DNA of 64,000 nucleotides from a bacterium (lineage in GTDB: Archaea > Thermoplasmatota > E2 > JACPAO01 > JAHFTW01), in NCBI GenBank assembly GCA_040390065.1, contig JAZJZE010000001.1, positions 186,068 through 250,067 of the forward strand, read 5' to 3'. The translations under genes and the position numbers were made by a program. The notes beneath the pieces were generated by a model that saw only the letters and a program-made list of their open reading frames with translations, ran no database searches and had not been told where the DNA came from. Below, piece after piece: positions 4,815 through 62,892 of the stretch; the stretch's first letter is position 1; each line of letters starts with the position of its first letter.

Positions 4815-5450
4815 ATGCCCAACGCGTACCACTACATCGGAGAAGCCTGGAAGAACCACGAGAACGGCTACGGCACGGCCCAATGGAGCCGCCTCGTGGA
4901 ATGGCGCGCCGGCGACTCGTTCGTCCGCGTCGACCGCCCCCTGCGTCTCGACCGCGCCCGCAGCCTGGGATACAAAGCCAAGCAAGGCATCGTGATCGTC
5001 CGCGCCCGCGTCCGCCGTGGTGGCCTGCACAAGGTCCGCCCGGTCCAGGGCCGAGTCCCCTCCAAGATGGGTGTCAACAAGATCACGATGCGCGAGAACA
5101 TCCAGTCCATCGCGGAGATCCGCAGCTCCAAGCACTTCCCCAACCTGGAGGTCCTCAACTCCTACTGGATCGGCGAGGACGGCAAGCACCAGTACTACGA
5201 GGTCATCATGGTGGACCCGCACCACCCGTCCATCATCAACGACAAGGACCTCGGCTGGCTCGCCACGACGCCGGCGACGAAGCGTGTCCTGCGCGGCCTG
5301 ACGTCGGCCGGCAAGAAGCACCGCGGCCTGCGCTACAAAGGCAAGGGCTCGGAGCACACGCGCCCGTCCGTCCGACAGTCCGGCGTGCGCGCCAAGGACA
5401 AGCTCCTGTGGAAGAAACAGGACCAGGCGCGCAGAATCCGCGTCAGCTAG
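4815..5450 (+). CDS. rpl15e: 50S ribosomal protein L15e
   Basis: RPLRLDRARSLGYKAKQG, NLEVLNSYWIGEDG, YEVIMVDPHHP, RGLTSAGKKHRGL. Confidence 0.98.
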   Translation: MPNAYHYIGEAWKNHENGYGTAQWSRLVEWRAGDSFVRVDRPLRLDRARSLGYKAKQGIVIVRARVRRGGLHKVRPVQGRVPSKMGVNKITMRENIQSIAEIRSSKHFPNLEVLNSYWIGEDGKHQYYEVIMVDPHHPSIINDKDLGWLATTPATKRVLRGLTSAGKKHRGLRYKGKGSEHTRPSVRQSGVRAKDKLLWKKQDQARRIRVS

Positions 5451-5619
5451 GCGAAGCCTGCGACACGCCTGATTCTGAGCGGCCTGCCGCTGCGGTCCGA
5501 CTTGCTCGGGCCGCAGCGCCAGGCGTGCCGCATGCGTGTCATCCAGCCGCCCTCGACCGTCGATGGCGCAGCTCACGTCGCTGCGCAATGGCTAAGCGAA
5601 GCGCATGCCATTGCGCCGC

Positions 5620-5805
5620 GTGGCATTCACCCACAACGGCTACACCCTGCACGCACGCGAGGTCGCCTTGAAGGGCGGCCACAAGCAGGTCATCTATTTC
5701 TTCAGCCAGCGCAGGCCTCAAAGCGGCATGCCGGTCGAGATGCCCGAAGGGTACGACGTGGCCGTCAACAAGCGCACGGGGCTGCCGTACCTGAAGAAGA
5801 AGTAG
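5620..5805 (+). CDS. small basic conserved-looking hypothetical protein
   Basis: GTG start (alternative ATG at 5605); GYTLHAREVALKGGHKQVIYFFS...PEGYDV..NKRTGLPYLKKK. Confidence 0.75.
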   Translation: MAFTHNGYTLHAREVALKGGHKQVIYFFSQRRPQSGMPVEMPEGYDVAVNKRTGLPYLKKK

Positions 5806-5968
5806 TGCGGCGCGACGGTTTCGCCTCGCTCACCCATCGCGCCGGGGGCCGCCGTCGGCGACCCGCACGCGCTCGCCTGCGGCTCGCGCGTCGCGCCTGT
5901 TGGGCCACAACCTCTTGCAAGTTGTTTGCGGCGACGAGCCTTAACTCGCGCCGTGTCCTGCCACCAAC

Positions 5969-6313
5969 ATGGACCGCAGGCTGTTGTTGGCGTCCGCCGC
6001 GTTGCTCCTGACTGTGGCTGCCTTGTCCCATCTGATTGCTGCCATGTCCGGAGGGGTACCAAGTTTTGCCCTCGCGGTCGCGGCCATCGCGGGCGCCGGC
6101 CTCGTTGCTCTCGTGGCGGCAATGCCGGACGGGGGCCGCCTGACGATGGGGGGTATCGGCGGGCTGGGTGCCCTGCTCGTGATGGTGCCGTTTGCCACCT
6201 CATGGCCGGCTGTCGTGACGAGCGAAGCCGGAATTGTCCCTCTTGTTCTCGGCGCGGCCGGCTGCGGGCTGCTGGCCCTTGCCCTGGTCCGGGCCCGTGT
6301 GCGCGCGGCCTAG
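5969..6313 (+). CDS. small membrane protein (about 4 TM)
   Basis: Hydrophobic 114-aa ORF with a CTTAA TATA-like element about 28 nt upstream. Confidence 0.6.
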   Translation: MDRRLLLASAALLLTVAALSHLIAAMSGGVPSFALAVAAIAGAGLVALVAAMPDGGRLTMGGIGGLGALLVMVPFATSWPAVVTSEAGIVPLVLGAAGCGLLALALVRARVRAA

Positions 6314-6348
6314 CCAACCCTTTTTCCGTTAGGCGTTGTGGCCGGGCC

Positions 6349-7077
6349 ATGGAGGACGACACCGAGGACGACGACTTCGAGGACGAGGAAGAGGAAGGCG
6401 TCGACCTCGACTGCCCGACGTGCCGCGAGGTGCAGACCCACGAGGTGCTGCGCGCTGCAGCCGCAGGATGGACGGTGCGCTGCATGGAGTGCCAGACGAC
6501 GCGCACGCTGCCCGCCCCACCGAAGGAGCGCACAATCGAGGTCCCCGTGATCCTGAGCGAAGGCGCCACGGCGCGCACGGTTCGCCTGGCCATTCCCCTC
6601 GACGGGCCGGTGTCCCCGGACGACGAATTCGACCTCGAGGGTCACCGCGTCCGCATCACGGCGGTCGAACTCCCCAACGGCGAACGGCCCAAGAAGGCGC
6701 TCGGCCGCAACGTGCGCACGCTCTACGCCGTCATGTTCGACACGGTTCCCCTGGATTACACCCTCAACGAAGGCGAGACGACGCGCTCCTTCCGCGAACA
6801 AGTCGCCCCGGAGGAAGAGGTGCACGTCGGCACCGTCCGCGAAGTGCAGGGCGTCAAACTCGTCGTGAAGACCCTCAAGTCGGACCAGAACCGCACCCTC
6901 CACAGCGGCTACCTCCTCGCCCGCAACGTGCGCCGCGTCTTTGCCGACGTCGCCAACCCGCGGGCCCGGCATGGCCAGCGGCACAGGGCCCGCAAACGCG
7001 GCCCGCCCCCAGGTGTGCGCGGCAAGCCAAAGAACCGCGTCAAGAAGCCCGGTCCAAGCCGGCCCCGCCGCTCCTGA
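6349..7077 (+). CDS. HVO_0476-family archaeal zinc-finger protein
   Basis: CPTC...THEVL...VRCMEC Zn ribbon, acidic N-terminus, basic C-terminal tail. Confidence 0.82.
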   Translation: MEDDTEDDDFEDEEEEGVDLDCPTCREVQTHEVLRAAAAGWTVRCMECQTTRTLPAPPKERTIEVPVILSEGATARTVRLAIPLDGPVSPDDEFDLEGHRVRITAVELPNGERPKKALGRNVRTLYAVMFDTVPLDYTLNEGETTRSFREQVAPEEEVHVGTVREVQGVKLVVKTLKSDQNRTLHSGYLLARNVRRVFADVANPRARHGQRHRARKRGPPPGVRGKPKNRVKKPGPSRPRRS

Positions 7078-7123
7078 GGCCGTCACCCCAAGGGCTTAAG
7101 CCCTCCTGGGTTCCGGGCTGTCC

Positions 7124-7549
7124 ATGGCCTCCGCCAAGAAGACCGCCCCCGCGAAGAAGAGCGCCCCGAAGCCGGTGGCGAAGGCCCCCGCAAACGCCCC
7201 GGCCAAGATGCCGGCCAAGCCTGCAGCGCAAGGCGCGAAGCCGTCACCTCAAGGCGGAAAGTCCGCGGGCAAGCCCATGCCGGCCCCCAAGGGCACCCTC
7301 GCCGCATCCGCCGGCGCCAAGATGCACGCCGCCGACGAAGAGGCCCCCGTCGTGCTCCCCAAGTTCAAGCTCGAGAAGCACGCCGGCAAGGACACCCTCT
7401 GCCAGATCGAGATCGTCAAGGACGGCCACTTCTTCATCGCCCGCACCGTCACCGAAGGCGGCGCCGCCAAGGAATACAAGAACACCGTCTTCGAAGACCT
7501 CCTCACGGAGATGGTGATTACGCTGCAGGAACAACTCTCCGACCACTGA
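7124..7549 (+). CDS. hypothetical protein with a K/A/P-rich N-terminal half and a small globular C-terminal domain
   Basis: CTTAAG about 27 nt upstream; genome-like codon bias; followed by hairpins. Confidence 0.75.
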   Translation: MASAKKTAPAKKSAPKPVAKAPANAPAKMPAKPAAQGAKPSPQGGKSAGKPMPAPKGTLAASAGAKMHAADEEAPVVLPKFKLEKHAGKDTLCQIEIVKDGHFFIARTVTEGGAAKEYKNTVFEDLLTEMVITLQEQLSDH

Positions 7550-7628
7550 ACGGGTTCGCTTCGCTCACCCGTTCAGTGGCTGGCTGAGGAACCCGCCGCT
7601 GGGGGCCCTCCGGGCCCCCAGACCCCCT
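7547..7628. repeat. REP-like palindromic hairpin cluster
   Basis: TGAACGGGT-tcgcttcgctc-ACCCGTTCA and GGGGGCCC-tcc-GGGCCCCC-AGACCCCC; related copies near 5810, 34555, 34745 and 47751. Confidence 0.6.
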
Positions 7629-8130
7629 CGGAGGAAAGGGCGGCCGCTCACACCGCGCGGCTCGTCGCCGCGCGTGTTCCTGCGCGCCGGGCGCCCGCCT
7701 TCGGGGCGCCAAGGCACGCCTGCTCGCTGCGCTCGCGAGCGGCCGCCCAGGCCGGCCGCGCAGGATGGTCGCCGATACGGAATCGCTAAGGCCCGCTGAG
7801 GGCGCTCGGCTCCTACCATCCGGGTCCGCGTTGGCAAGCCGGCCGCCGAGGCCGGCCCCGCAGCATGGTCACGGACGCCGGGCCGCTTCGCTGGTGAGAC
7901 GGCTCGGCTCTTGCCGTCCGGCGCCGCGTTGACACGTCGGTCGCCGCGGCCAGCCGCGCAGGGAGAACGTGGCCGTGAAGCTCGGCTGCGCCTGTTGCTT
8001 CGGTTGATGGTTGGGCGTCGGCGCGGCAGCTAGTCCGTCGCTTCCCGTTCGCCAATGGGCAAGACGGGCAGCGGGCGCATGGGCCTGACGGCTCGGAACC
8101 ACGAGATGCTGACGGTGACCATGCGTCACC

Positions 8131-9177
8131 TCAGATGGCGTCGCGAATCCCTTGTTCGGTCACATTGACCACGGCTTCGCCTTCGGGCAGGTGCGGGCTG
8201 TCGACGAGGCGGCAGATGCGCTTTCCGCCCTTGCTCTTGCGCAGGTAGATGCGGAAGGTGCTGGTGTGGCCGACGATGTGGCCGCCGATGGGGCGCGTCG
8301 GATCGCCGAAGAAGGCATCCGGCTTGGCGCTCACTTGGTTCGTGACGACGCAGGCGGCGTTGTTGATGCCGGCCAGGCGCTGGAGGTCGTGCATGTGCTT
8401 GTTGAGTTTGCCTTGGCGGTCGGCGAGTGTGCCGCGGCCGACGAACTCGGCGCGGAAGTGCGCCGTCAAGGAATCGACGATGATGAGCTTGATCGGGAAC
8501 TCGCGGCAAAGTTCCGCGGCGCGTTCCGCCAGCAGCATCTGGTGGTTGGAGTTGAAGGCGCGGGCGACGTGGATCTTCTTGAGGGTCTCCGTCGGGTCCA
8601 TGCCGAGGGCCTCGGCCATCTGGGTGATGCGCTCGGGGCGGAAGGTGTTCTCCGTGTCGATGAAGAGGGCGTGGCCCTCGAGGCCGCCGTCCGCTTGGGA
8701 GCGCTGCACGTTGACCGCGAGCTGCATGGCGAACTGGGTCTTGCAGGAGCCGAACTCACCGTAGAACTCGGTGATGGCCTGCGTCTCGATGCCGCCGCCC
8801 ATGAGTTCGTCGAAGGCCTTGGCCCCGGTGCCGATCTTGGTGACGGTCTTGCGGCGCTCGGCCACTTCGAGGCCGGTCTCGAAGCCGCCGACGTCGGCAA
8901 GCTTGCGGGCCGCGTTGATGATCTTCTGGGCGATGCCTTCGCCGATGTCGCACTTCTCCGCGATGTCGCCGGGGGACGCAACAGCGATGGCCATGAGGTC
9001 CTCGTAGCCGGCCTCTTTCATCTTCTCCGCGGTGGCGGGGCCGACGCCGGGGAGGTCCTCCACGGTCATGCGGATGTGCCCCTCGCGCTTCGGGTCGTTC
9101 GTGATGTTCGCGTCGTTTTCCAAGGTTGCGTCGTAGTCTTCTTCCATGGCAACCGATTCCTTCTGTTTTCTGGCCAT
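8131..9177 (-). CDS. radA: DNA repair and recombination protein RadA
   Basis: N-terminal HhH ([13 protein letters not shown]), Walker [31 protein letters not shown]. Start codon uncertain (9177 or 9147); no intein. Confidence 0.97.
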
Positions 9178-9288
9178 TTGAGGCACCAGCCGTCTGGAGC
9201 CTTGGCCCGGAGTTAGCCATGAAAGCCCAGGTGGATGAAAGTACTGGTGCAGGCCGCGGCCTGGACAGGAGCCAGAAGGCCCCGGCCG

Positions 9289-12200
9289 TTACTTGCCCTT
9301 CTTGGCCCGGGCGTCGTGCAGCTTCAGCAGGGCGTCGATCTTGGCTGCGTCGTAGCCCGGTGGGCCGGTGGGCGCCTTGGCCCCGATGCGTTCGACCAGC
9401 TTGCCTGCGGCGGGGCGGGCAGCCGGCGGCGGGATGGGCATGCGCGGCGGCGCCGGTGCGGGCGGGGTCGGCCGCGCAGGGGCTGGGACGCCACGCGGCT
9501 GGATCGCGACGCGCGCCGCGGCTTGCACGGCCGGCGGCTCCCACGCTGGCACGGCGGCGGCTTCGCGACGCGCCTTCTCGGCGGCAGCGGCCGCCGCGCG
9601 GGCCCTTGCCTCCTCCTCGTCGCGACGCTTGGCCTCGGCCTCTGCCTGCGCATCCTGGCGGGCGATCTCGTCGCGGTGGGCTTTCTCGGCGTCCTCGCGT
9701 TCGCGGTCGCGGGCAAGCCGGGCGGCTTCCTTGGCCTGCTCCTTGGCTTGCCGTTCCGCTTCCTTCTCGGCGGCGGCCTGAGCCTTGGCCTGCTCCTTCT
9801 CGCGAGCCGCGCGCTCCTTCTCTTCGCGGCGGCGCGTCTCCTCCGTTTCCCGCTGGGTTTCCTTGGCCTTGTCGCGGGCAAGCGCCTGCGCGGCGGCCTG
9901 AGCCTCGGATTCGGCGGCATCGCGGGCCGCCTTCTCCTTCTGCTCGCGGCGGCTGAGGTCGGATTCCACCGGTTTGGCGTCAGCCTCGATGGTCTTCTCC
10001 TTGCGCAGTCGTGAGAGGAAGGCCTTCTTCTCGGGGGCCTCGGCAGTTGCCGCGGCAGGAGTGTCGGGCTTGGCGCGGCCGAAGCGACCCAAGAGGCCCT
10101 TCTTGGTCTCCGCGGGCTCCTCAGGCTCGGGCGTCGCGGTGATCTCCACGACCTTGCCAGCCTTGCCCTTCTTCACGACGACGACGGGCTCGGCGGGGGG
10201 CTCAGGTTTCGTCTCCGCCGGGGGCGCGTCGTCCGCCTTCTTGGGCTTGAATCGTGACAGGAATCCGGGCTTCGGCGCCTCTTCGGTAGCGGGCGCGGAC
10301 GGGGGCTCGACGACGATGACCTTGCCGGCCTTGCCCTTCTTGGGCGCTTCGAGGACCGCGGGCGGCGCCGCCTCGGCGTCCGGCTTGGCCTTGCGTGCGA
10401 AGCGGCCGAGCAGGCCCTTCTTCGGCTCCTCTGCGGGGGAAGTCTCGACCGGGGCGGCCTTGGATTTCTTGCCGTCCTTGACGACTTCGACCTTCGCGGC
10501 CGCCTTGGGCTCGTCGGCGCCCTTCTTCGAGGCCTTCTTTGCCTCTTTGGCGGCGAGTTTGGCTGCGGCCGCTTCCTCCTTGGCCTTCACTTTGGCGGCC
10601 TTCGCGGCCTCTTTCTTCTGGCGCTTGAGGTCGCGCCTGGAGAGTGCGGGCGCTCCGGCAGGCGCTTCGGCCTTGGCCTTGCCGCGCAAGCGCGACAGCA
10701 ATCCAGCTTTCGTCTCCTCGGGCTTGGCCTTCTTGCCCTTGGGCGTCGCGTCGGCCTGCTTGGCCTTGTCGGCCTTCCCTTTCTTGCCTTTCCGGAAACG
10801 CCCCAACAGGCCGGCCTTGGGCGCTTCCTTGGCCGCCTTCTTCTCGGCCTTCTTGGCGGCGGCACGCTCCTTCCGCGAGAGCTTGGGCTCGGCTGCGTCC
10901 TTCTTGCCACGGCGCAGGACACGGGCCAGCAACCCGGCCTTGGCGTCCTCGGAGATGGGCTTGTCGGCGGCCGAAACAGGGGGCGCGGCGGGGGCAGCCT
11001 CCTGCACCTTGGCGGCCTTCCTGGTTGGGATTGGCGCGACGGCAGGAGTCGGCTCCTCCTCGCCCTTGCGCCGCAATCGGCCGAGAAGCGACGGCTTGGC
11101 CGGGGCCACGGTTTCCTCGCCGCGAGCTTCGGCCTTCGCCTTCTGCTTGGCAAGCCGGGCCGTCTCCTTGGCCTTGGCAAAGTCCGCCTTGCGCTTGGCT
11201 TCGGCGGCCTTGCGTTCCTCCTTGAGGCGTTCCTTCTCTTCACGGCGCAGCGCGCGCAGGTCGGCAGGCTTCTCCTCGACGGGGGGCGCCTCGACGGGAA
11301 CGAGGGCCTCGGTGACGTGGAAGCCGGCGGGCGTCGTGTACTCCCGGCCCGCGCGGTGGCCGAAGGCGTAGACGCGGCCGTGCTCGCCACGCTCGTCCTC
11401 CGGCAGCTTCTCGAACGGGCTCACGTCGCCGGGCAGCCGCGGCTTCGGGTGGCTGTGCTTGTCCTCGGGCAGGACCTCGAACGGGCTGCGGCCGTCGGGC
11501 AGGCGGGGCTTCGGGTGCGGCGCGTGCTCGTCGTCGGGCAGGCGCGCAAACGGACTCGTGCCATCGGGCAGGCGCGGCGCGTCGTGGATGTGGCGGTCCG
11601 CGTCGATGCGGGCAAACGGGCTGCGGCCGTCGACGAGCCGGACCTTCTCGTGGGCGGCGGCCTTGCGATCGGCCTTGTCGGTCTTCTCGTCCCAGTCGTC
11701 GCGACGAGCCTCTTGGGATTGCTGCCAGACGGAACCCTCGTACGGGCTGGAGAGCGGCTTCGCGATGGCTTGCTCCCACAGCGAGGAGGACTTGCCCGCG
11801 AGTTTGTCTTCGCGTTCGCGGCGGCGTGCCATCTCACGTTCGCGGCGCTCCAGTTCGCGGCGGTGGCGCTTGTCGGCCCGGGCCGCGGCGCGGGGATCTG
11901 GCGCCTTGGATTCGTCCTTCTTGGGTTTCGCTTCGGCGGGCTTGCCTCTTGCCTCGAGCTTGGCGGCCTTGGCCTTTGCCTTCGCCGCCTTCTTGGCATC
12001 CTTGGCGGCCTTCTTCGCCAGCTTGCGAGCCAGTTTTTCCTCGCGCTTGCGCAGGGCGGCGGCCTGCTTGTCGGTCGCCTCGCCAGGGAACGGCTCGGTG
12101 GTCTTGGCCTTCTTGCCGAACGGGATGAGGCGACCGAGTCCGGCGCCTTCCGGCTTCTCCTTGCCCTTCCCGGCCTTGGCTTTCTCCGGCTTGTCGGGCT

Positions 12201-13917
12201 TGGCCGCGGCCTTGTCATCCTTGCGGCCGAACGGCAGCGCGAAGCGGGATGCCTTCTCCGGCTCCGCTTTCGCAGGCTTTGCCTCCTTCGTGTCGCCCTT
12301 GCGTCCGAAGGGCAGCGCGAAGCGCGACGGTTTCTCGGCCTCGCCCTTTGGCGGCATCTTCGCCGGCTTGGCGTCCTTGGCGTCCGTCGCGGGCTCGACC
12401 ACGGTCTTGCGGCCGAACGGCAGGCGCAAGCGGCTCTCGGCCTTGTCCTTCGGTACCGCGACCGGCGGCGCCTTCTTGGGGCCCTCGTCACCGGCGTCCA
12501 CGACGACTTTCTTGCCGAAGGGCAGGCCGAAGCGGCGACCCTTGGCCTCGTCGACGTCGGGTTTGGCCGGCTTGTCCTTGCGGCCGAAGCGCAGGAGGCC
12601 GGCCTTGGCGGGTTCTTCCGGCTTCGCGGTTTTCGCGGCTGGGGCGGGCTTGTCCTCCCTCGTCCGGCGCAAGCGCGCAAACAGGCCGGGTTTTGCCTCG
12701 GCCTTTGGCTTGGCGCCGCCCTTGGGCTTGACGGGCTCGGCCTTTGGAGCCTCTTCCTTCGCGCCGCGCCCGAACCTTAGCAGTGAGCGCTTGGCTGCCG
12801 GGTCCGTCGCAGCAGGTTTCGCGTCGGCCTCGGCGGCTTTCGCCTGCTTGGCCGCGAGCTTGGCAGCGGCCTCGTCCTCTTTGGCTTGGCGCTTGGCCTC
12901 AGCCTTCGCGGCTTTCATCGCCTTCTTGTCGGGCGCGGGGGCCCCCGGTGTCTGGCCGGCGAGGCCGAGGAGGGACTTGCACTTCGGGCAGGTTGCCTGG
13001 ACGGCATCGCTTGGCGCTTCGAAGACGTGGTTGCACTGCGCGCACTCAACAACCTGCTTGCCCGCTGACGGTGCAGGAAGGGCTGGCGCGACCGGAGGTG
13101 TCGGAATCGTCACCTTGGCTGGCCGGCGGGGCGGCGCAGCGGCCGTGGTTGCAGGAGGCTCGGGTTCGGGCGGCGCGTCGGATTTCGCCTTGCCGCGCAG
13201 GCGGAACAGCAGGCCGCGCGTCTTGCGGACCGGATGCGTCTCGGCGGCCACGTCCACTTCGACGCTGGCTTTGGACTTGCGGCCGAAGCGGTGCAGGAAC
13301 CCGCGTTCGGCCTCGTGCTTGGCCTCGGCGGCGTGCTCCTTGGCGTCGACGGCCTCGGCCGGATGGTCCTCGTCGTCCTTGTCGGCCGAATCCGGCTTGG
13401 CGATGAGCTCCTTGCGGAGTGCTTCTGCGCCGGGGTCGGCGTGCCGCGGCTTGAGCTTGCGGGCCGCCTTGATCCACTTGGCCGTGAGCTTGGCCGTGAC
13501 GGGGACGCCGATGACGTTCTGCTCGAGGCTGTCGAGGTACGCTTGGATCTTGGCCGCAAGCGCCTCGGCTTCCTGCTGGGCGAGCTCGTAGATCGAGTTG
13601 ATCTGGACGCGCACCAGCACTTCGGCAAACTGCGGGCCCACACCCTTCAGGCGGATGAGTTCCGCCATGTCCTGCCAGCTGCGGATGCGCGCCGCAGGGA
13701 TGCCGGTCTTCTTGGCGAGCTCCTCGGCGTCCGCGGCCACGAGTTGTTCGCTGTTGTCCACGCCCTTCTGCCGGAGCTTCAATGTGAACGTCGGCCCGAT
13801 GCCCTCGATGTCCAGGATGGGGATGCCGGCGCCCGTGGCGGGAGTGCGGTCGCGCCAGCGTAGGAAACGGCGGCGCGCCGAGCCGGCTGCGGCTTCGTCG
13901 GTGGAGGGCTTCGCCAT
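9289..13917 (-). CDS. 1542-aa protein: DUF4332-like HhH domain, Zn ribbon and long K/A/E/P-rich repeat region
   Basis: ILDIEGIGP...IRLKGVGPQFAEVL (HhH pair), CAQC...CPKC, repeated GLLxRF/LPFGRK motifs; coherent codon use over 4.6 kb. Confidence 0.85.
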   Translation of the reverse strand: MAKPSTDEAAAGSARRRFLRWRDRTPATGAGIPILDIEGIGPTFTLKLRQKGVDNSEQLVAADAEELAKKTGIPAARIRSWQDMAELIRLKGVGPQFAEVLVRVQINSIYELAQQEAEALAAKIQAYLDSLEQNVIGVPVTAKLTAKWIKAARKLKPRHADPGAEALRKELIAKPDSADKDDEDHPAEAVDAKEHAAEAKHEAERGFLHRFGRKSKASVEVDVAAETHPVRKTRGLLFRLRGKAKSDAPPEPEPPATTAAAPPRRPAKVTIPTPPVAPALPAPSAGKQVVECAQCNHVFEAPSDAVQATCPKCKSLLGLAGQTPGAPAPDKKAMKAAKAEAKRQAKEDEAAAKLAAKQAKAAEADAKPAATDPAAKRSLLRFGRGAKEEAPKAEPVKPKGGAKPKAEAKPGLFARLRRTREDKPAPAAKTAKPEEPAKAGLLRFGRKDKPAKPDVDEAKGRRFGLPFGKKVVVDAGDEGPKKAPPVAVPKDKAESRLRLPFGRKTVVEPATDAKDAKPAKMPPKGEAEKPSRFALPFGRKGDTKEAKPAKAEPEKASRFALPFGRKDDKAAAKPDKPEKAKAGKGKEKPEGAGLGRLIPFGKKAKTTEPFPGEATDKQAAALRKREEKLARKLAKKAAKDAKKAAKAKAKAAKLEARGKPAEAKPKKDESKAPDPRAAARADKRHRRELERREREMARRREREDKLAGKSSSLWEQAIAKPLSSPYEGSVWQQSQEARRDDWDEKTDKADRKAAAHEKVRLVDGRSPFARIDADRHIHDAPRLPDGTSPFARLPDDEHAPHPKPRLPDGRSPFEVLPEDKHSHPKPRLPGDVSPFEKLPEDERGEHGRVYAFGHRAGREYTTPAGFHVTEALVPVEAPPVEEKPADLRALRREEKERLKEERKAAEAKRKADFAKAKETARLAKQKAKAEARGEETVAPAKPSLLGRLRRKGEEEPTPAVAPIPTRKAAKVQEAAPAAPPVSAADKPISEDAKAGLLARVLRRGKKDAAEPKLSRKERAAAKKAEKKAAKEAPKAGLLGRFRKGKKGKADKAKQADATPKGKKAKPEETKAGLLSRLRGKAKAEAPAGAPALSRRDLKRQKKEAAKAAKVKAKEEAAAAKLAAKEAKKASKKGADEPKAAAKVEVVKDGKKSKAAPVETSPAEEPKKGLLGRFARKAKPDAEAAPPAVLEAPKKGKAGKVIVVEPPSAPATEEAPKPGFLSRFKPKKADDAPPAETKPEPPAEPVVVVKKGKAGKVVEITATPEPEEPAETKKGLLGRFGRAKPDTPAAATAEAPEKKAFLSRLRKEKTIEADAKPVESDLSRREQKEKAARDAAESEAQAAAQALARDKAKETQRETEETRRREEKERAAREKEQAKAQAAAEKEAERQAKEQAKEAARLARDREREDAEKAHRDEIARQDAQAEAEAKRRDEEEARARAAAAAAEKARREAAAVPAWEPPAVQAAARVAIQPRGVPAPARPTPPAPAPPRMPIPPPAARPAAGKLVERIGAKAPTGPPGYDAAKIDALLKLHDARAKKGK

Positions 13918-14106
13918 GTCAGCCCCCCCCTTGCCCCAGGCTCATCCGAGGGCAGGGTCTGCTTTTGCGTTCGGGCAAGACGACGGCTCCTCCAGAGGCA
14001 ATGCCGCACAGTCCGGCTATAAATAAAGGGGTTGGCGCGAGTCTTGGATTGGGCGGGATGGTCCGATTGTCGCGGCCAGCCTGCCCATCCGCCCGGGTCC
14101 CGGCCG

Positions 14107-14886
14107 ATGTCGCAAGCCTTTTGCCGTCCCACCCCGCGTTCACCGTCCGTGTTCCTGCGTGCCCTGGTCCTCCTGGTGGCCCTCACCGCCACGGCATTCG
14201 CCTCGACAGGTTGGGCACAGGCGCAGTCGTCGCCGACCGATTCCGACCAGGACGGCATCCCCGACACGGCGGACAATTGCATCAGCCTCTCCAACAACGA
14301 CCAGGCGGACCTCGACCAGGACCACTTGGGTGACGCCTGCGACGACGACCGCGACGGCGACGGCGTGAAGGACCAGTTCGACAACTGCCCGACGACGCCG
14401 AACGGCAACCAGACCGACGACAACCACAATGGGCAGGGGGATGTGTGCGAGCCGGTGGACCAGCACACAACCACGAGCGGCCCGCCGCCGGACAGGGACG
14501 GCGACGGTTTCTCGGACGCCAAGGACGTCTGCCCGACGATTGCGAACCACGACCAGTCGGACATCGACCACGACGGCATCGGCGACATGTGCGACATCGA
14601 CGCCGACGGCGACGGCATCGTCGACTCCGGTGTGGCATTCCCCGACAATTGTCCGACGGCGCCCAACCACGACCAGAAGGATTCCGACGAGGACGGCACC
14701 GGCAACGTCTGCGACGCAACGCCCCTGCCGCTGTCGTGCGCGACGTGCACGACCTCGCCGCAGGTCCAGGACAACACCAAGAAGAGCGAGGACCAGGGGC
14801 CTTGGATGCTCATTGGGGCGGGCCTGCTTGCTGGAACCGTCGTCGGCGTGGCGGCGGCGGCCCTCCTCCTGCGCAAGGGCAAGTAG
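14107..14886 (+). CDS. thrombospondin type-3 repeat surface protein
   Basis: Signal peptide, DxDxDGxxDxxDNC / DxDxDGxGDxCD repeats, C-terminal TM followed by RKGK. Confidence 0.85.
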   Translation: MSQAFCRPTPRSPSVFLRALVLLVALTATAFASTGWAQAQSSPTDSDQDGIPDTADNCISLSNNDQADLDQDHLGDACDDDRDGDGVKDQFDNCPTTPNGNQTDDNHNGQGDVCEPVDQHTTTSGPPPDRDGDGFSDAKDVCPTIANHDQSDIDHDGIGDMCDIDADGDGIVDSGVAFPDNCPTAPNHDQKDSDEDGTGNVCDATPLPLSCATCTTSPQVQDNTKKSEDQGPWMLIGAGLLAGTVVGVAAAALLLRKGK

Positions 14887-15401: not shown

Positions 15402-16913
15402 TCAGACGGCGTCGACGGTGATGGCTTGCGGCGTCGTGCGCACGAGGGCGAAGGCTTCCTGGCGCGGCATGATCCGCTGGGCCCCCGCCGAGGTCACGCG
15501 GTCGATGAGGCCGGCGCCCTGGAATTGGCGCAAGTGGTAGGCGACGAGCGACGGGTCGCAGCCGAGCCGCAGCGCGATGTCGTTGGCAGTCGAGCCGGGG
15601 AAGCCGAGAATCTGTTCGAGGATGGAGCGCGCCGTCTCGGAGCGCAGCGTGTCGTGACCCGGGACCGCTTCCGAGCCTTCGGCGTAGTAGCCCACGGCAC
15701 CCTTCCATTCATGGCGGTGCACGAAGCCGGCGCGCACGAGGACTTGCAAGTGGTACTGCACGGAGGCGGAGCCGGTGCCGACGGCGCGCTGCAGGGCGCG
15801 GAAGTGGATGCCCGGCTGTTCGCGGATGAGGGCAATGAGGGTCTTGCGGTTCGGATGCTCCAGGAGCTCGTCGCCGGAGATGCGACTGAAGCCGGCGGCA
15901 AGGCCGCCGAGCCCAATCCACTTGCCGCCGGTTGCGACGCGCGCTCCGCGGGAGGCGATGCGCCGCCACGAGACGACAACGGCTCCGGCCACGCCGGCGG
16001 CCGCGATGGCGACGCCGACCGTGGACGGCGTGCCGCCTCCTGGCCTGTCCTGGACGGGGATGACTCCGGTCGAGGCCGGCAGCGCGGCGGTCTGCAGCCC
16101 AGAGGGCGCCGGCACGGCCGACAGGATCGCGCAGGCGTCGCCGTGGCCGTCATGGTCCGCATCCGCTTGGTCCTCGTTGGCCGTGCGGGGGCAGTTGTCC
16201 GCGGCGTTCTGCACGTGGTCGCCGTCGATGTCGTTGTCGCAGGCGTCGCCGATGCCGTCGCCGTCTTGGTCGGATTGCGTCGGGTTGCGGATGCCCGGGC
16301 AGTTGTCGCCGACGTTCAAGACGAGGTCCGCGTCGAGGTCCGTGTCGCAGGCGTCGCCGGCGGTGTCGCCATCGGAGTCGACCTGCGTGGGATTGTAGAC
16401 TGTGGCGCAGTTGTCCGCGTTGTCCGGCATGCCGTCGCCGTCGGCGTCGCCGCTTGCGGCCTGGGGATCCGAGCCGTCATGCGGCTGCGAGTTGGAGGGT
16501 TCGGTGCTGCTGGACGAGCCAGATGGGCAGGGAGGATCGTTGGTGGCGTGCACCACGGCCTTGTAGGTCGTGGTCTGGCCGCGCGAGTCGGTCTCCTTGA
16601 AGACCACGGGGTAGTCGCCCGATGCGCCGTACGCGTGCTGCGGGTTCTGCTCGGTGCTGCTCGTGCCGTCGCCGAATTCCCAGGCCCAGGAAACGACCGG
16701 GTAGCCTGCTGGCGTCCACGACCCGTCGAAGGACAAGGTCTCGGGCCCGCAGCCCACGGTTGTCTCGCTCCAGGAGAATCCCACCGCGCTGCCGTCGGCT
16801 TGCACGCCAGGCAACAGGCTGGACCCTGCCATGGCACAGACCACCAGGAAGGCCCCAAGATGGAAGGGGGTGCGGGAGTGGCTTCGGGGCAGGGACGGGA
16901 CCACGTGGACCAA
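15402..16913 (-). CDS. PKD + TSP3 repeats + TM + double winged-helix DNA-binding protein
   Basis: SWAWEFGDG...QNPQHAY (PKD), TSP3 repeats, TM ([16 protein letters not shown]), LLEHPNR..LI...PGIHFRAL and [13 protein letters not shown]...VAYHLRQF. Confidence 0.85.
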
Positions 16914-62514: not shown

Positions 62515-62892
62515 CTACTTTCCGCCGCGCGCCTTGTGCCGGTCGATGCGCACGCCGGTGGGGGCGATGATGAGCATCGTCTTGCCGAGGCCGGCGATGT
62601 CGCCGTTGATGTCGGTGACCAGCTTCTTGAGGTCGCCCGTCACGCGGCGCAGCACGATTTCGTCCTGGGCGATGGGGGAGAAGTCCAGGAGCAGGAGGTT
62701 GCCTTGGTAAACGTAGTTGGCATACTCGCGCAGGTCCTCGTATTTCTGGATCTCCGCGACGCGCACCATCATGGTGGACGTGGCGTCAAACAGTTCCATC
62801 CCCGCGGTGGCCTCCTCGAGGTCAATGTAGTCCTTGCCGTCGGAGCGCGTCTTGGCGGCCGGCTTGGAGCTGAAAAGCGACTTGAGGCCCAT
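62515..62892 (-). CDS. sepF: cell division protein SepF (archaeal)
   Basis: N-terminal amphipathic MGLKSLF; DYIDL; VYQGNLLLLD; GDIAGLG..LIIAPTGVRIDR; usual position beside ZPR1. Confidence 0.9.
   Translation of the reverse strand: MGLKSLFSSKPAAKTRSDGKDYIDLEEATAGMELFDATSTMMVRVAEIQKYEDLREYANYVYQGNLLLLDFSPIAQDEIVLRRVTGDLKKLVTDINGDIAGLGKTMLIIAPTGVRIDRHKARGGK

Follow-up and report, generated by a model that had tools for sequence, protein, structure and literature searches.

The window analysed here, a 64,000-nucleotide stretch of a Thermoplasmatota genome (GCA_040390065.1, contig JAZJZE010000001.1, positions 186,068 to 250,067), contains immediately upstream of the recombinase gene radA an unusually long gene for a DUF4332 scaffold protein of 1,542 amino acids (aa), hereafter the giant (9289-13917 (-)). 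Judged from its sequence, the giant is a lineage-restricted, largely non-globular scaffold protein, and it may tie DNA to the membrane through many short motifs in one chain. An earlier sequence-only reading of the window had treated this open reading frame (ORF) as a gene, and both its coding signature (GC content 0.86 at third codon positions, GC3, versus 0.52 at second positions, GC2; neighbouring radA is alike) and the presence of orthologues of 1,178-2,084 aa bear this out. The source organism is represented by metagenome-assembled genomes only, of which this one is 89% complete in 50 contigs; G000 denotes this source genome, other G and P labels its relatives, and g1, g4 and g6 genera. 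The giant is rich in Ala (20.6%), Lys (13.9%), Glu (10.2%), Pro (10.1%) and Arg (8.8%), with a net charge of +111. As previously claimed, it has no transmembrane (TM) segment, the highest Kyte-Doolittle value of any 19-mer being 0.91; TM and motif counts in this study depend on simple hydropathy thresholds and purpose-written regular expressions.

The order of parts is kept across ten orthologues that were read side by side and aligned. The N-terminal part comprises, often after an additional zinc (Zn) ribbon, an RxRFLxRxxRT stretch, the DUF4332 domain, an AERGF(L/M)xRFxR motif and a putative four-Cys Zn ribbon. The remainder consists of long K/A/E-rich stretches, a conserved central module, a spacer, an ER/K-rich stretch and a C-terminal (Y/F)DxxKIDAxLxxH segment.

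The tail of the window's giant is punctuated by 18 basic-hydrophobic motifs, all of them internal (aa 206 to 1306): 13 of a class A, G/S/A-(L/F)-(L/F)-x-R-(F/L/V)-x-(R/K), and five of a class B, (L/I)PFG(R/K)K. Class A opens with GFLHRFGRK (aa 206-214) and GLLFRLRGK (aa 235-243) at 13189-13302 (-), followed by SLLRFGRG, GLFARLRR and GLLRFGRK (aa 378-447; 12577-12786 (-)); the eight others, SLLGRLRRK, GLLARVLRR, GLLGRFRK, GLLSRLRGK, GLLGRFARK, GFLSRFK, GLLGRFGR and AFLSRLRK, lie within aa 943-1306 (10000-11091 (-)). The class-B motifs, which in extended form read (R/G)x(x)(L/I)PFG(R/K)K, occupy aa 462-603 (12109-12534 (-)). The whole list given by the sequence-only reading, 13 motifs of a G(L/F)(L/F)xR(F/L)xRK type and five (L/I)PFG(R/K)K, was recovered. 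Nearly all Leu, Ile, Phe, Met, Trp and Tyr residues of the tail fall inside these motifs or the central module.

The motifs are far above chance expectation. When an island was defined as nine residues with at least three large hydrophobics, at least two Lys/Arg and no acid, aa 166-1480 held 16 islands, compared with 3.5 +/- 1.7 (maximum 9) in 2,000 shuffles. An approximate proteome (2,492 ORFs, 706,107 aa) was obtained by a GC3/GC2 filter on 17,289 ORFs of at least 60 aa; the giant accounts for 13 of its 106 class-A matches, the next-best ORFs having two each, and for five of its six matches to the class-B expression LPFG[RK][RK]. At the DNA level, a 78-bp tandem repeat (2.3 copies, 12209-12386) lies inside the class-B stretch. 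The class-A motifs are outside tandem arrays, and they are therefore not recent duplications; the segment 10000-11091 is without a long-period array and has as its sole array a 12-bp repeat of 2.8 copies (10828-10860). A role of the class-A motif as a general membrane tag was considered and rejected, the other proteome matches being single and mostly in folded proteins or beside the TM segments of helix-turn-helix (HTH) proteins. Genome proteins that resemble the product of 15402-16913 (-) have GLFSR(L/I) right after a TM segment. The sixth class-B match, LPFGRR, ends a homologue of V-ATPase subunit I (PF01496; 26851-29070 (-)) and is probably unrelated.

The motifs had been proposed to be amphipathic and similar to those of MinD and SepF. 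Helical hydrophobic moments (100 degrees, 9-residue windows), ranked among all 9-mers of the giant, gave nine of the 13 class-A motifs a percentile of at least 96 and 11 of them one of at least 91, the other two standing at 78-81; their net charges are +2 to +4. Their moments, 0.36-0.63, are at least as high as the 0.35-0.38 of the SepF N-terminus from this genome. The class-B motifs, all of which contain Pro and Gly, reach only the 67th-87th percentile, and none of the five attains the 90th. The class-A motifs are thus classically amphipathic, nine of 13 strongly so, and the five LPFG(R/K)K motifs are not.

Passages of published work describe the membrane-targeting sequences (MTSs) of MinD, FtsA and SepF as amphipathic, some 7-12 residues long, hydrophobic on one face and flanked by basic residues, and document MTS helices for archaeal MinD4 and SepF (bioRxiv 10.1101/2020.04.03.021790, PMC8187382). 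In hydrophobic moment and charge the class-A motifs match this description, and their make-up is that of in-plane membrane anchors, which would predict lipid binding. The proposed likeness to MinD and SepF survives as an analogy in moment and charge: each of those proteins has one MTS, at a terminus and attached to a folded ATPase or SepF domain, whereas the motifs of the giant are many and internal, and Pfam and NCBIfam searches found neither a MinD/ParA nor a SepF domain in it. The ORF beginning MGLKSLF (62515-62892 (-)) is indeed SepF (PF04472, 53.4 bits versus a cut-off of 27). A genome search for MinD gave nothing above cut-off, the best MinD_arch match having 47.6 bits versus 201.75.

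The N-terminal head would supply the nucleic acid contact. It contains a DUF4332 domain of two helix-hairpin-helix (HhH) pairs (aa 34-160; 13438-13818 (-)), recognised by Pfam PF14229 (aa 38-155, E 6e-17, 62.4 bits versus a cut-off of 23.2, profile positions 1-122 of 122) and HHH_5 (42 bits versus 27), which corroborates the paired-HhH, DUF4332-like domain of the sequence-only reading. Residues G30, G32, G83, G85 and P86 (alignment numbering) are invariant among 10 orthologues, so that both G-h-G hairpins are kept, and AlphaFold2 (AF2) models the domain with a predicted local distance difference test score (pLDDT) above 90 throughout. A Foldseek search of the N-terminal model against the PDB gave no whole-domain match with E <= 0.001; local HhH-pair matches were best to RadA/Rad51 N-terminal domains, led by 2z43_C (root-mean-square deviation 1.1 over 54 columns, 30% identity), then to HhH units of polymerases and NusA. 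NCBIfam returned only a weak match of aa 34-78 to the N-terminal part of its RadA model. The sequence of aa 1-330 found nothing below E 0.01 among solved structures; its weak HhH matches (all E >= 0.01) were to ribosomal L32e and topoisomerase V, and a cytochrome c3 match over the Zn ribbon was discarded as a chance match. By its HhH class, the head is probably a tandem-HhH module of the DNA-backbone-binding type.

Two further elements accompany the domain. Ahead of it, the basic-hydrophobic stretch RRRFLRWRDR (aa 15-24; 13846-13875 (-)) is kept in orthologues as RxRFLxRxxRT, one other genus included, with R6, F9, L10, R15 and T16 of the N-terminal alignment invariant or nearly so; AF2 models it as a short low-confidence helix. 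Behind it, the CAQC...CPKC candidate Zn ribbon (CxxC-x16-CxxC, aa 292-313) stands exactly where it had been reported, at 12979-13044 (-). All four Cys are retained in the orthologues read; the Pfam zinc-ribbon models over aa 290-315 stay below cut-off (14.7 bits versus 27).

Three conserved parts had escaped the sequence-only reading: a central repeat array, a candidate ER/K-type helix and a C-terminal helix. The central module (aa 711-880; 11278-11787 (-)), delimited from a nine-row orthologue alignment, is acidic by composition and has two invariant Trp, an FGHxxGxxYTTxxGF segment and four (R)LPDGxSPFxxLP(E/D)D repeats, with two to four in the aligned orthologues; the repeat consensus is S-(P/L/A/M)-F-x-x-(L/I)-P-E-D. 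Beneath it lies a DNA repeat with a period of 66-69 bp (about three copies, 11391-11632). An AF2 model of the alignment (predicted template-modelling score 0.23, mean pLDDT 67) has a one-turn helix per repeat and a small hairpin, with no globular fold, and we read the module as a probable array of short linear motifs. It occurs once in the ORF set of G000, and a protein atlas search with aa 690-900 gave no usable match. RLPDGxSPFxxLPEDE is, at the level of aligned sequences, a newly defined conserved peptide repeat whose partner could now be sought.

On either side of the module are long helix-prone segments. A K/A/E/R-rich, mostly Pro/Gly-free and strongly positive segment (aa 613-707; 11797-12081 (-)) carries 17 K+R and 6 D+E in aa 613-657 alone. 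The 140-aa Pro/Gly-free, E/R/K/A-rich stretch at aa 1317-1456 (9550-9969 (-); 36 K+R, 38 D+E) is a candidate ER/K single alpha-helix spacer of about 20 nm, resembling that class in composition only. The C-terminal segment (aa 1504-1542; 9292-9408 (-)) ends in (Y/F)DxxKIDAxLxxH in orthologues of five genera.

The best independent hint that DUF4332 works at the membrane in this lineage, circumstantial as it is, comes from paralogues. The domain is expanded, with three to nine head matches in most of the family genomes that matched, and three of the five G000 paralogues have an N-terminal pair of strong TM segments ahead of DUF4332 at the C-terminus; by our reading of the positive-inside rule the domain would be cytoplasmic. 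In a non-random sample from the upper part of the match list (23 ORFs in 22 loci), 13 of the 23 have at least one predicted TM segment ahead of the domain. TM-less paralogues include two with one motif each, RRRFGFFGRRKPK in G000 and GLFSRFRK in one sampled relative ORF. These patterns suggest that DUF4332 is here mostly a membrane-anchored cytoplasmic HhH module. The paralogues share the domain with the giant at 30-45% identity; they are proteins of 250-700 aa with a C-terminal domain and true TM segments, whereas the giant has an N-terminal domain and no TM segment, and possesses in addition the Zn ribbon, the central repeat module, the long helices and the C-terminal helix. Outside the window, the ORF C1:301094-301783 (+) of G000, one of these five, is a weak DUF4332 paralogue with an HhH unit and a K/A/P-rich tail, fused to an N-terminus that we take to be L31e-like.

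The family is confined to one Thermoplasmatota family. A profile of the central module retrieved five representative proteins among 1,835,955,588, and the module was found in 14 of the 38 genomes of the order, namely G000 and 13 of the 31 others of its own family, many of these genomes being fragmented; it was found in none of the six genomes of two sister families. Searches for relatives by sequence, with aa 1-330 and with the domain, returned four proteins each and probably missed distant DUF4332 members. The closest relatives, G004 and P0002, are 64-68% identical over the head, and counterparts could be aligned for 13-14 of the 18 motifs. Identity, scored with gaps as mismatches, was higher in motifs than in spacers in both (0.52 versus 0.42 in G004; 0.51 versus 0.30 in P0002). 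The first class-A motif, as AERGF(L/M)xRFxR, recurs in the 10 genus-g1-type giants read, including G002, P0002 and P0005, and is absent from G024 and G015 of other genera; in the N-terminal AF2 model it ends a low-confidence helix. Elsewhere, the G002 giant has three GSFLSR(L/F)KR motifs, and there are one to four motifs in G005, G006, G008, G012 and P0005. The giant of G045, from another genus (5444-9676 of its locus), has two DUF4332 domains with class-A-like motifs after each, about six in all, including KGLFGRLRRGK and SGLLGRFKLRSRK.

Two variants of the family plan were also observed. In genus g6 (G017 locus 7820-13499, G041 locus 9700-12437) the giant is split at the same point into two or three consecutive ORFs, with DUF4332 after the central module rather than N-terminal. 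Tails may also carry Cys/His-rich inserts, QCxAxTxDGxQCRNSAxxGSxFCxSH, of which there are two copies in G024 and one in the C-terminal half of the giant in G011 (2-1849 of its locus); the insert is absent from the window's giant.

Taken together, these features would be consistent with a multivalent peripheral DNA-membrane tether or scaffold that resembles Noc, with the anchors in one chain, and we assign this reading, the one we favour, a probability of about 0.4. Each class-A motif would fold into a two-turn amphipathic helix lying in the plane of the cytoplasmic membrane face, its Leu/Phe inserted and its flanking Arg/Lys touching acidic head groups, and the LPFGRK motifs may bind as unstructured basic-aromatic patches. 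Single contacts would be weak, and 13-18 of them in one chain could give strong, reversible avidity. The HhH domain, perhaps together with the K/A-rich stretches, would hold DNA without sequence preference and so bridge nucleoid and membrane; the central repeats and the C-terminal helix may recruit a partner, and the ER/K helix could serve as a spacer. The support for such a tether consists of the class-A moments, the islands, the concentration of motifs in one protein of the proteome, their conservation over spacers, their presence in another genus and the TM-anchored paralogues.

The nearest functional parallel is Noc of Bacillus subtilis. Passages of the work on Noc describe its helix as weak alone, an assembly of many copies being needed to bring DNA to the membrane (PMC4331003). 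Noc and the giant would share DNA binding combined with weak short amphipathic membrane helices that act many together, both properties being predicted for the giant. Each subunit of Noc, a CTPase of the ParB family, has a single N-terminal helix, and multivalency arises by spreading on DNA, whereas the giant would use DUF4332/HhH as its DNA module and carry 13-18 internal motifs in one chain. Pfam and NCBIfam searches gave no ParB/Noc match in the giant, and the likeness is functional only. By its domain matches, the giant belongs to DUF4332 and stands outside the MinD, SepF, Noc/ParB and BRCA2 families.

Several observations weigh against a tether. The number of motifs varies greatly: a looser class-A expression, which also catches stretches beyond the 13 listed motifs, counted 15 in G000, 12 in G004, 10 in P0002, five in G002, four in G007 (with 12 FGFGRK), two in G005 and in P0005, one in G008, none in G024 and 0-1 in G017 and G041, so that orthologues range from 0-1 motifs (genera g4 and g6) to about 18. 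No orthologue has a TM segment in compensation, the maximal Kyte-Doolittle 19-mer value being below 1.5 in all, and anchoring by motifs is therefore not a conserved core function; the central array and the C-terminal helix are the most conserved parts outside the domain. The first class-A motif has a strongly conserved context, DAKxEAERGFLxRFxR, and with these flanks it looks like a docking site for a particular protein rather than a contact for lipids in general. Class-B motifs, given their Pro and Gly and their 67th-87th percentile moments, are basic-aromatic patches and not helices, and basic-aromatic motifs could equally bind nucleic acid or self-associate. The motifs are internal, unlike classical terminal MTSs; the paralogue sample was not random; and DNA binding by DUF4332 is predicted from the HhH class, the domain having a single mention in one paper of the literature consulted. 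The unconserved motif count, the site-like first motif and the alternative ligands of basic-aromatic motifs are what hold the probability at its present level.

The picture that results is of a many-motif state that, on the aligned sequences, is a sublineage trait over a conserved core. Motif number, whose conservation the sequence-only reading had proposed to check, is thus not conserved, and motif positions are partly conserved in the closest relatives. Orthologues lacking the tail and the radA linkage had been named as counter-evidence; both tail and linkage are present in orthologues. As for the multivalent DNA-membrane link itself, it gains from class-A amphipathicity, from the conservation of motifs over spacers and from TM-anchored paralogues, and loses from the unconserved motif count.

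The alternative that survives best, though we still regard it as unlikely, is a sticker-and-spacer scaffold in which the Phe/Leu-Arg/Lys motifs, set in a polyampholyte, self-associate or bind protein and build assemblies or condensates associated with DNA, at repair sites for instance, in place of lipid binding. Short aromatic/basic motifs at regular spacing in long charged low-complexity spacers would suit such a scaffold, as would a second, peptide-like conserved repeat array without a globular fold; the highly conserved first motif with its flanks is as expected for a specific interaction, and strong variation in motif number is seen in other multivalent scaffolds. The class-A arrangement of a hydrophobic face, basic flanks and a Gly cap is nevertheless the classical lipid-binding one, the TM-anchored paralogues point to the membrane, and the analysis yielded no partner. 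Readings of the motifs as MIT-interacting or PIP-box-like peptides were rejected as a poor fit to those patterns.

We find it more doubtful still that the giant is a nucleoid-associated, chromatin-like protein whose HhH domain, H1-like K/A/P stretches and motifs all bind nucleic acid and coat, bridge or space DNA, with no membrane role. Its net charge, its K/A-rich Pro/Gly-free segments such as aa 613-657 and an HhH domain of the RadA N-terminal type would fit, and K/A/P tails occur in other proteins of the genome (the 141-aa ORF at 7124-7549 and the L31e-HhH fusion). DNA binding, however, needs no helically periodic Leu/Phe clusters, and neither the acidic central module nor the balanced ER/K helix is a DNA binder by composition. 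The distribution would also be odd for a core chromatin protein: only a single family of archaea has it, and a search of that family's 31 other genomes did not detect it in 18, many of which are incomplete.

The remaining serious alternative turns on the neighbouring gene. RadA, the archaeal Rad51/RadA recombinase (8131-9177 (-); Pfam Rad51, E 1e-86), is encoded downstream of the giant on the same strand, with a gap of 111 bp to the radA ATG and 102 bp to a GTG upstream of it, in agreement with the co-orientation and the distance of about 110 bp reported before. Of the 14 genomes that have the central module, 12, from five genera, have radA directly downstream on the same strand. The arrangement belongs to a wider syntenic block of a PF01877 gene, the giant, radA, a Zn-finger ORF and a 141-aa ORF, which weakens a link specific to radA. 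In G005 and G006 the giant is followed by translation-factor genes and radA is on a different contig, the break falling exactly between giant and radA. About 55 nt 5' of the radA ATG is a conserved 13-nt element, AGTACTTTCATCC (9233-9245 (-)), a candidate promoter or regulatory site, kept in all seven aligned giant-radA intergenic regions of genus g1 while its flanks vary; GGTGCC, just before the radA start, is also conserved, and together they suggest that radA has its own promoter. Among 30 radA loci of the class, no DUF4332 gene was found within 1.5 kb of radA outside the giant's lineage. The radA linkage proposed earlier is therefore conserved in 12 of 14 genomes and qualified by the wider block and by radA's own upstream element; as a sign of joint function it is suggestive and not evidence.

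That the giant is a RadA-specific recombination mediator, in the manner of BRCA2, with SPFxxLPEDE repeats or class-A motifs docking RadA and the HhH domain bringing DNA, seems improbable to a higher degree. Its attractions are the adjacency itself, also where a genus has two radA genes and the giant adjoins one of them, the resemblance of the HhH unit to the RadA N-terminal domain (2z43_C; the weak NCBIfam RadA match), and a parallel in overall build with BRCA2, likewise very large and for the most part disordered, in which short repeated peptides accompany a DNA-binding module. The adjacency is weakened by the longer block, by the break in G005/G006, by the conserved element upstream of radA and by the lack of DUF4332 genes within 1.5 kb of outgroup-family radA. 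The giant is moreover unrelated to BRCA2 in sequence, without a Pfam BRCA2 match. The core consensus of the BRC repeat is FxxA; the repeats of the giant read F-x-x-(L/I), and the linker of this RadA has F-E-T-G.

A hybrid of these ideas strikes us as slightly less probable again: a recombination-mediator scaffold whose RadA-like HhH domain would hold DNA, whose repeats and C-terminal helix would recruit RadA or a repair factor, and which would be pinned to the membrane in some lineages by up to 18 in-plane anchors. Were this the case, the giant would be a hub for repair or segregation, tethered to the membrane and made of short linear motifs. Least credible of all is a rapidly evolving low-complexity protein whose motifs are functionless by-products of repeat expansion in a GC-rich genome: extreme composition, DNA tandem repeats in two segments and large differences in length and motif number among relatives would agree with it, but the open frame of 1,542 codons with a coding GC3/GC2 signature, the five separate modules conserved across genera, and the class-A motifs, which lie outside DNA repeat arrays in a set better conserved than its spacers, make it very hard to sustain.

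If the motifs of the giant do bind lipid, as the tether reading supposes, a DNA-binding head joined to a long in-cis array of weak in-plane anchors would be a simple means of coupling nucleoid and membrane. To our knowledge no earlier protein combines such an array with a DNA-binding head, and we know of no previous work on chromosome organisation in this archaeal group. A literature search on archaeal amphipathic-helix, HhH and disordered membrane-tether proteins found no such protein, judged by titles, and the public annotation of one relative reads only 'DUF4332 domain-containing protein'. The in-cis multivalent anchor architecture and the repeat module would be new as such, and new as a DNA-membrane bridge only if the membrane reading is right. 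The family would also give DUF4332 a context, as a membrane-anchored HhH module in this lineage.

Other features of the neighbourhood were noted in passing. Several genera have two radA copies (G013, in tandem on C31, G015, G017, G018, G022, G024 and G047), whereas g1 has one; these paired copies are 74-83% identical to the window's RadA. In G017, G018 and G024 the giant adjoins one copy, and the copy beside it does not resemble the window's RadA more closely than its counterpart does. Beyond radA, the 141-aa ORF (7124-7549 (+)) combines an N-terminal tail rich in K/A/P with a short conserved portion at the C-terminus, and adjoins a 246-aa CxxC...CxxC ORF (6337-7077 (+)); both are syntenic with radA across genera, and neither had a Pfam or NCBIfam match. 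On the other side, a TATA-like TTTATTTATA (14018-14027 (-)), about 100 nt 5' of the giant's ATG between divergent genes, was picked out by eye as a candidate. Further along, 14032-14886 (+) and 15402-16913 (-) encode two proteins with thrombospondin type-3 repeats, the second of which also has PKD, a TM region and cytoplasmic HTH domains of HVO_0163/MarR type and is a putative membrane-spanning regulator.

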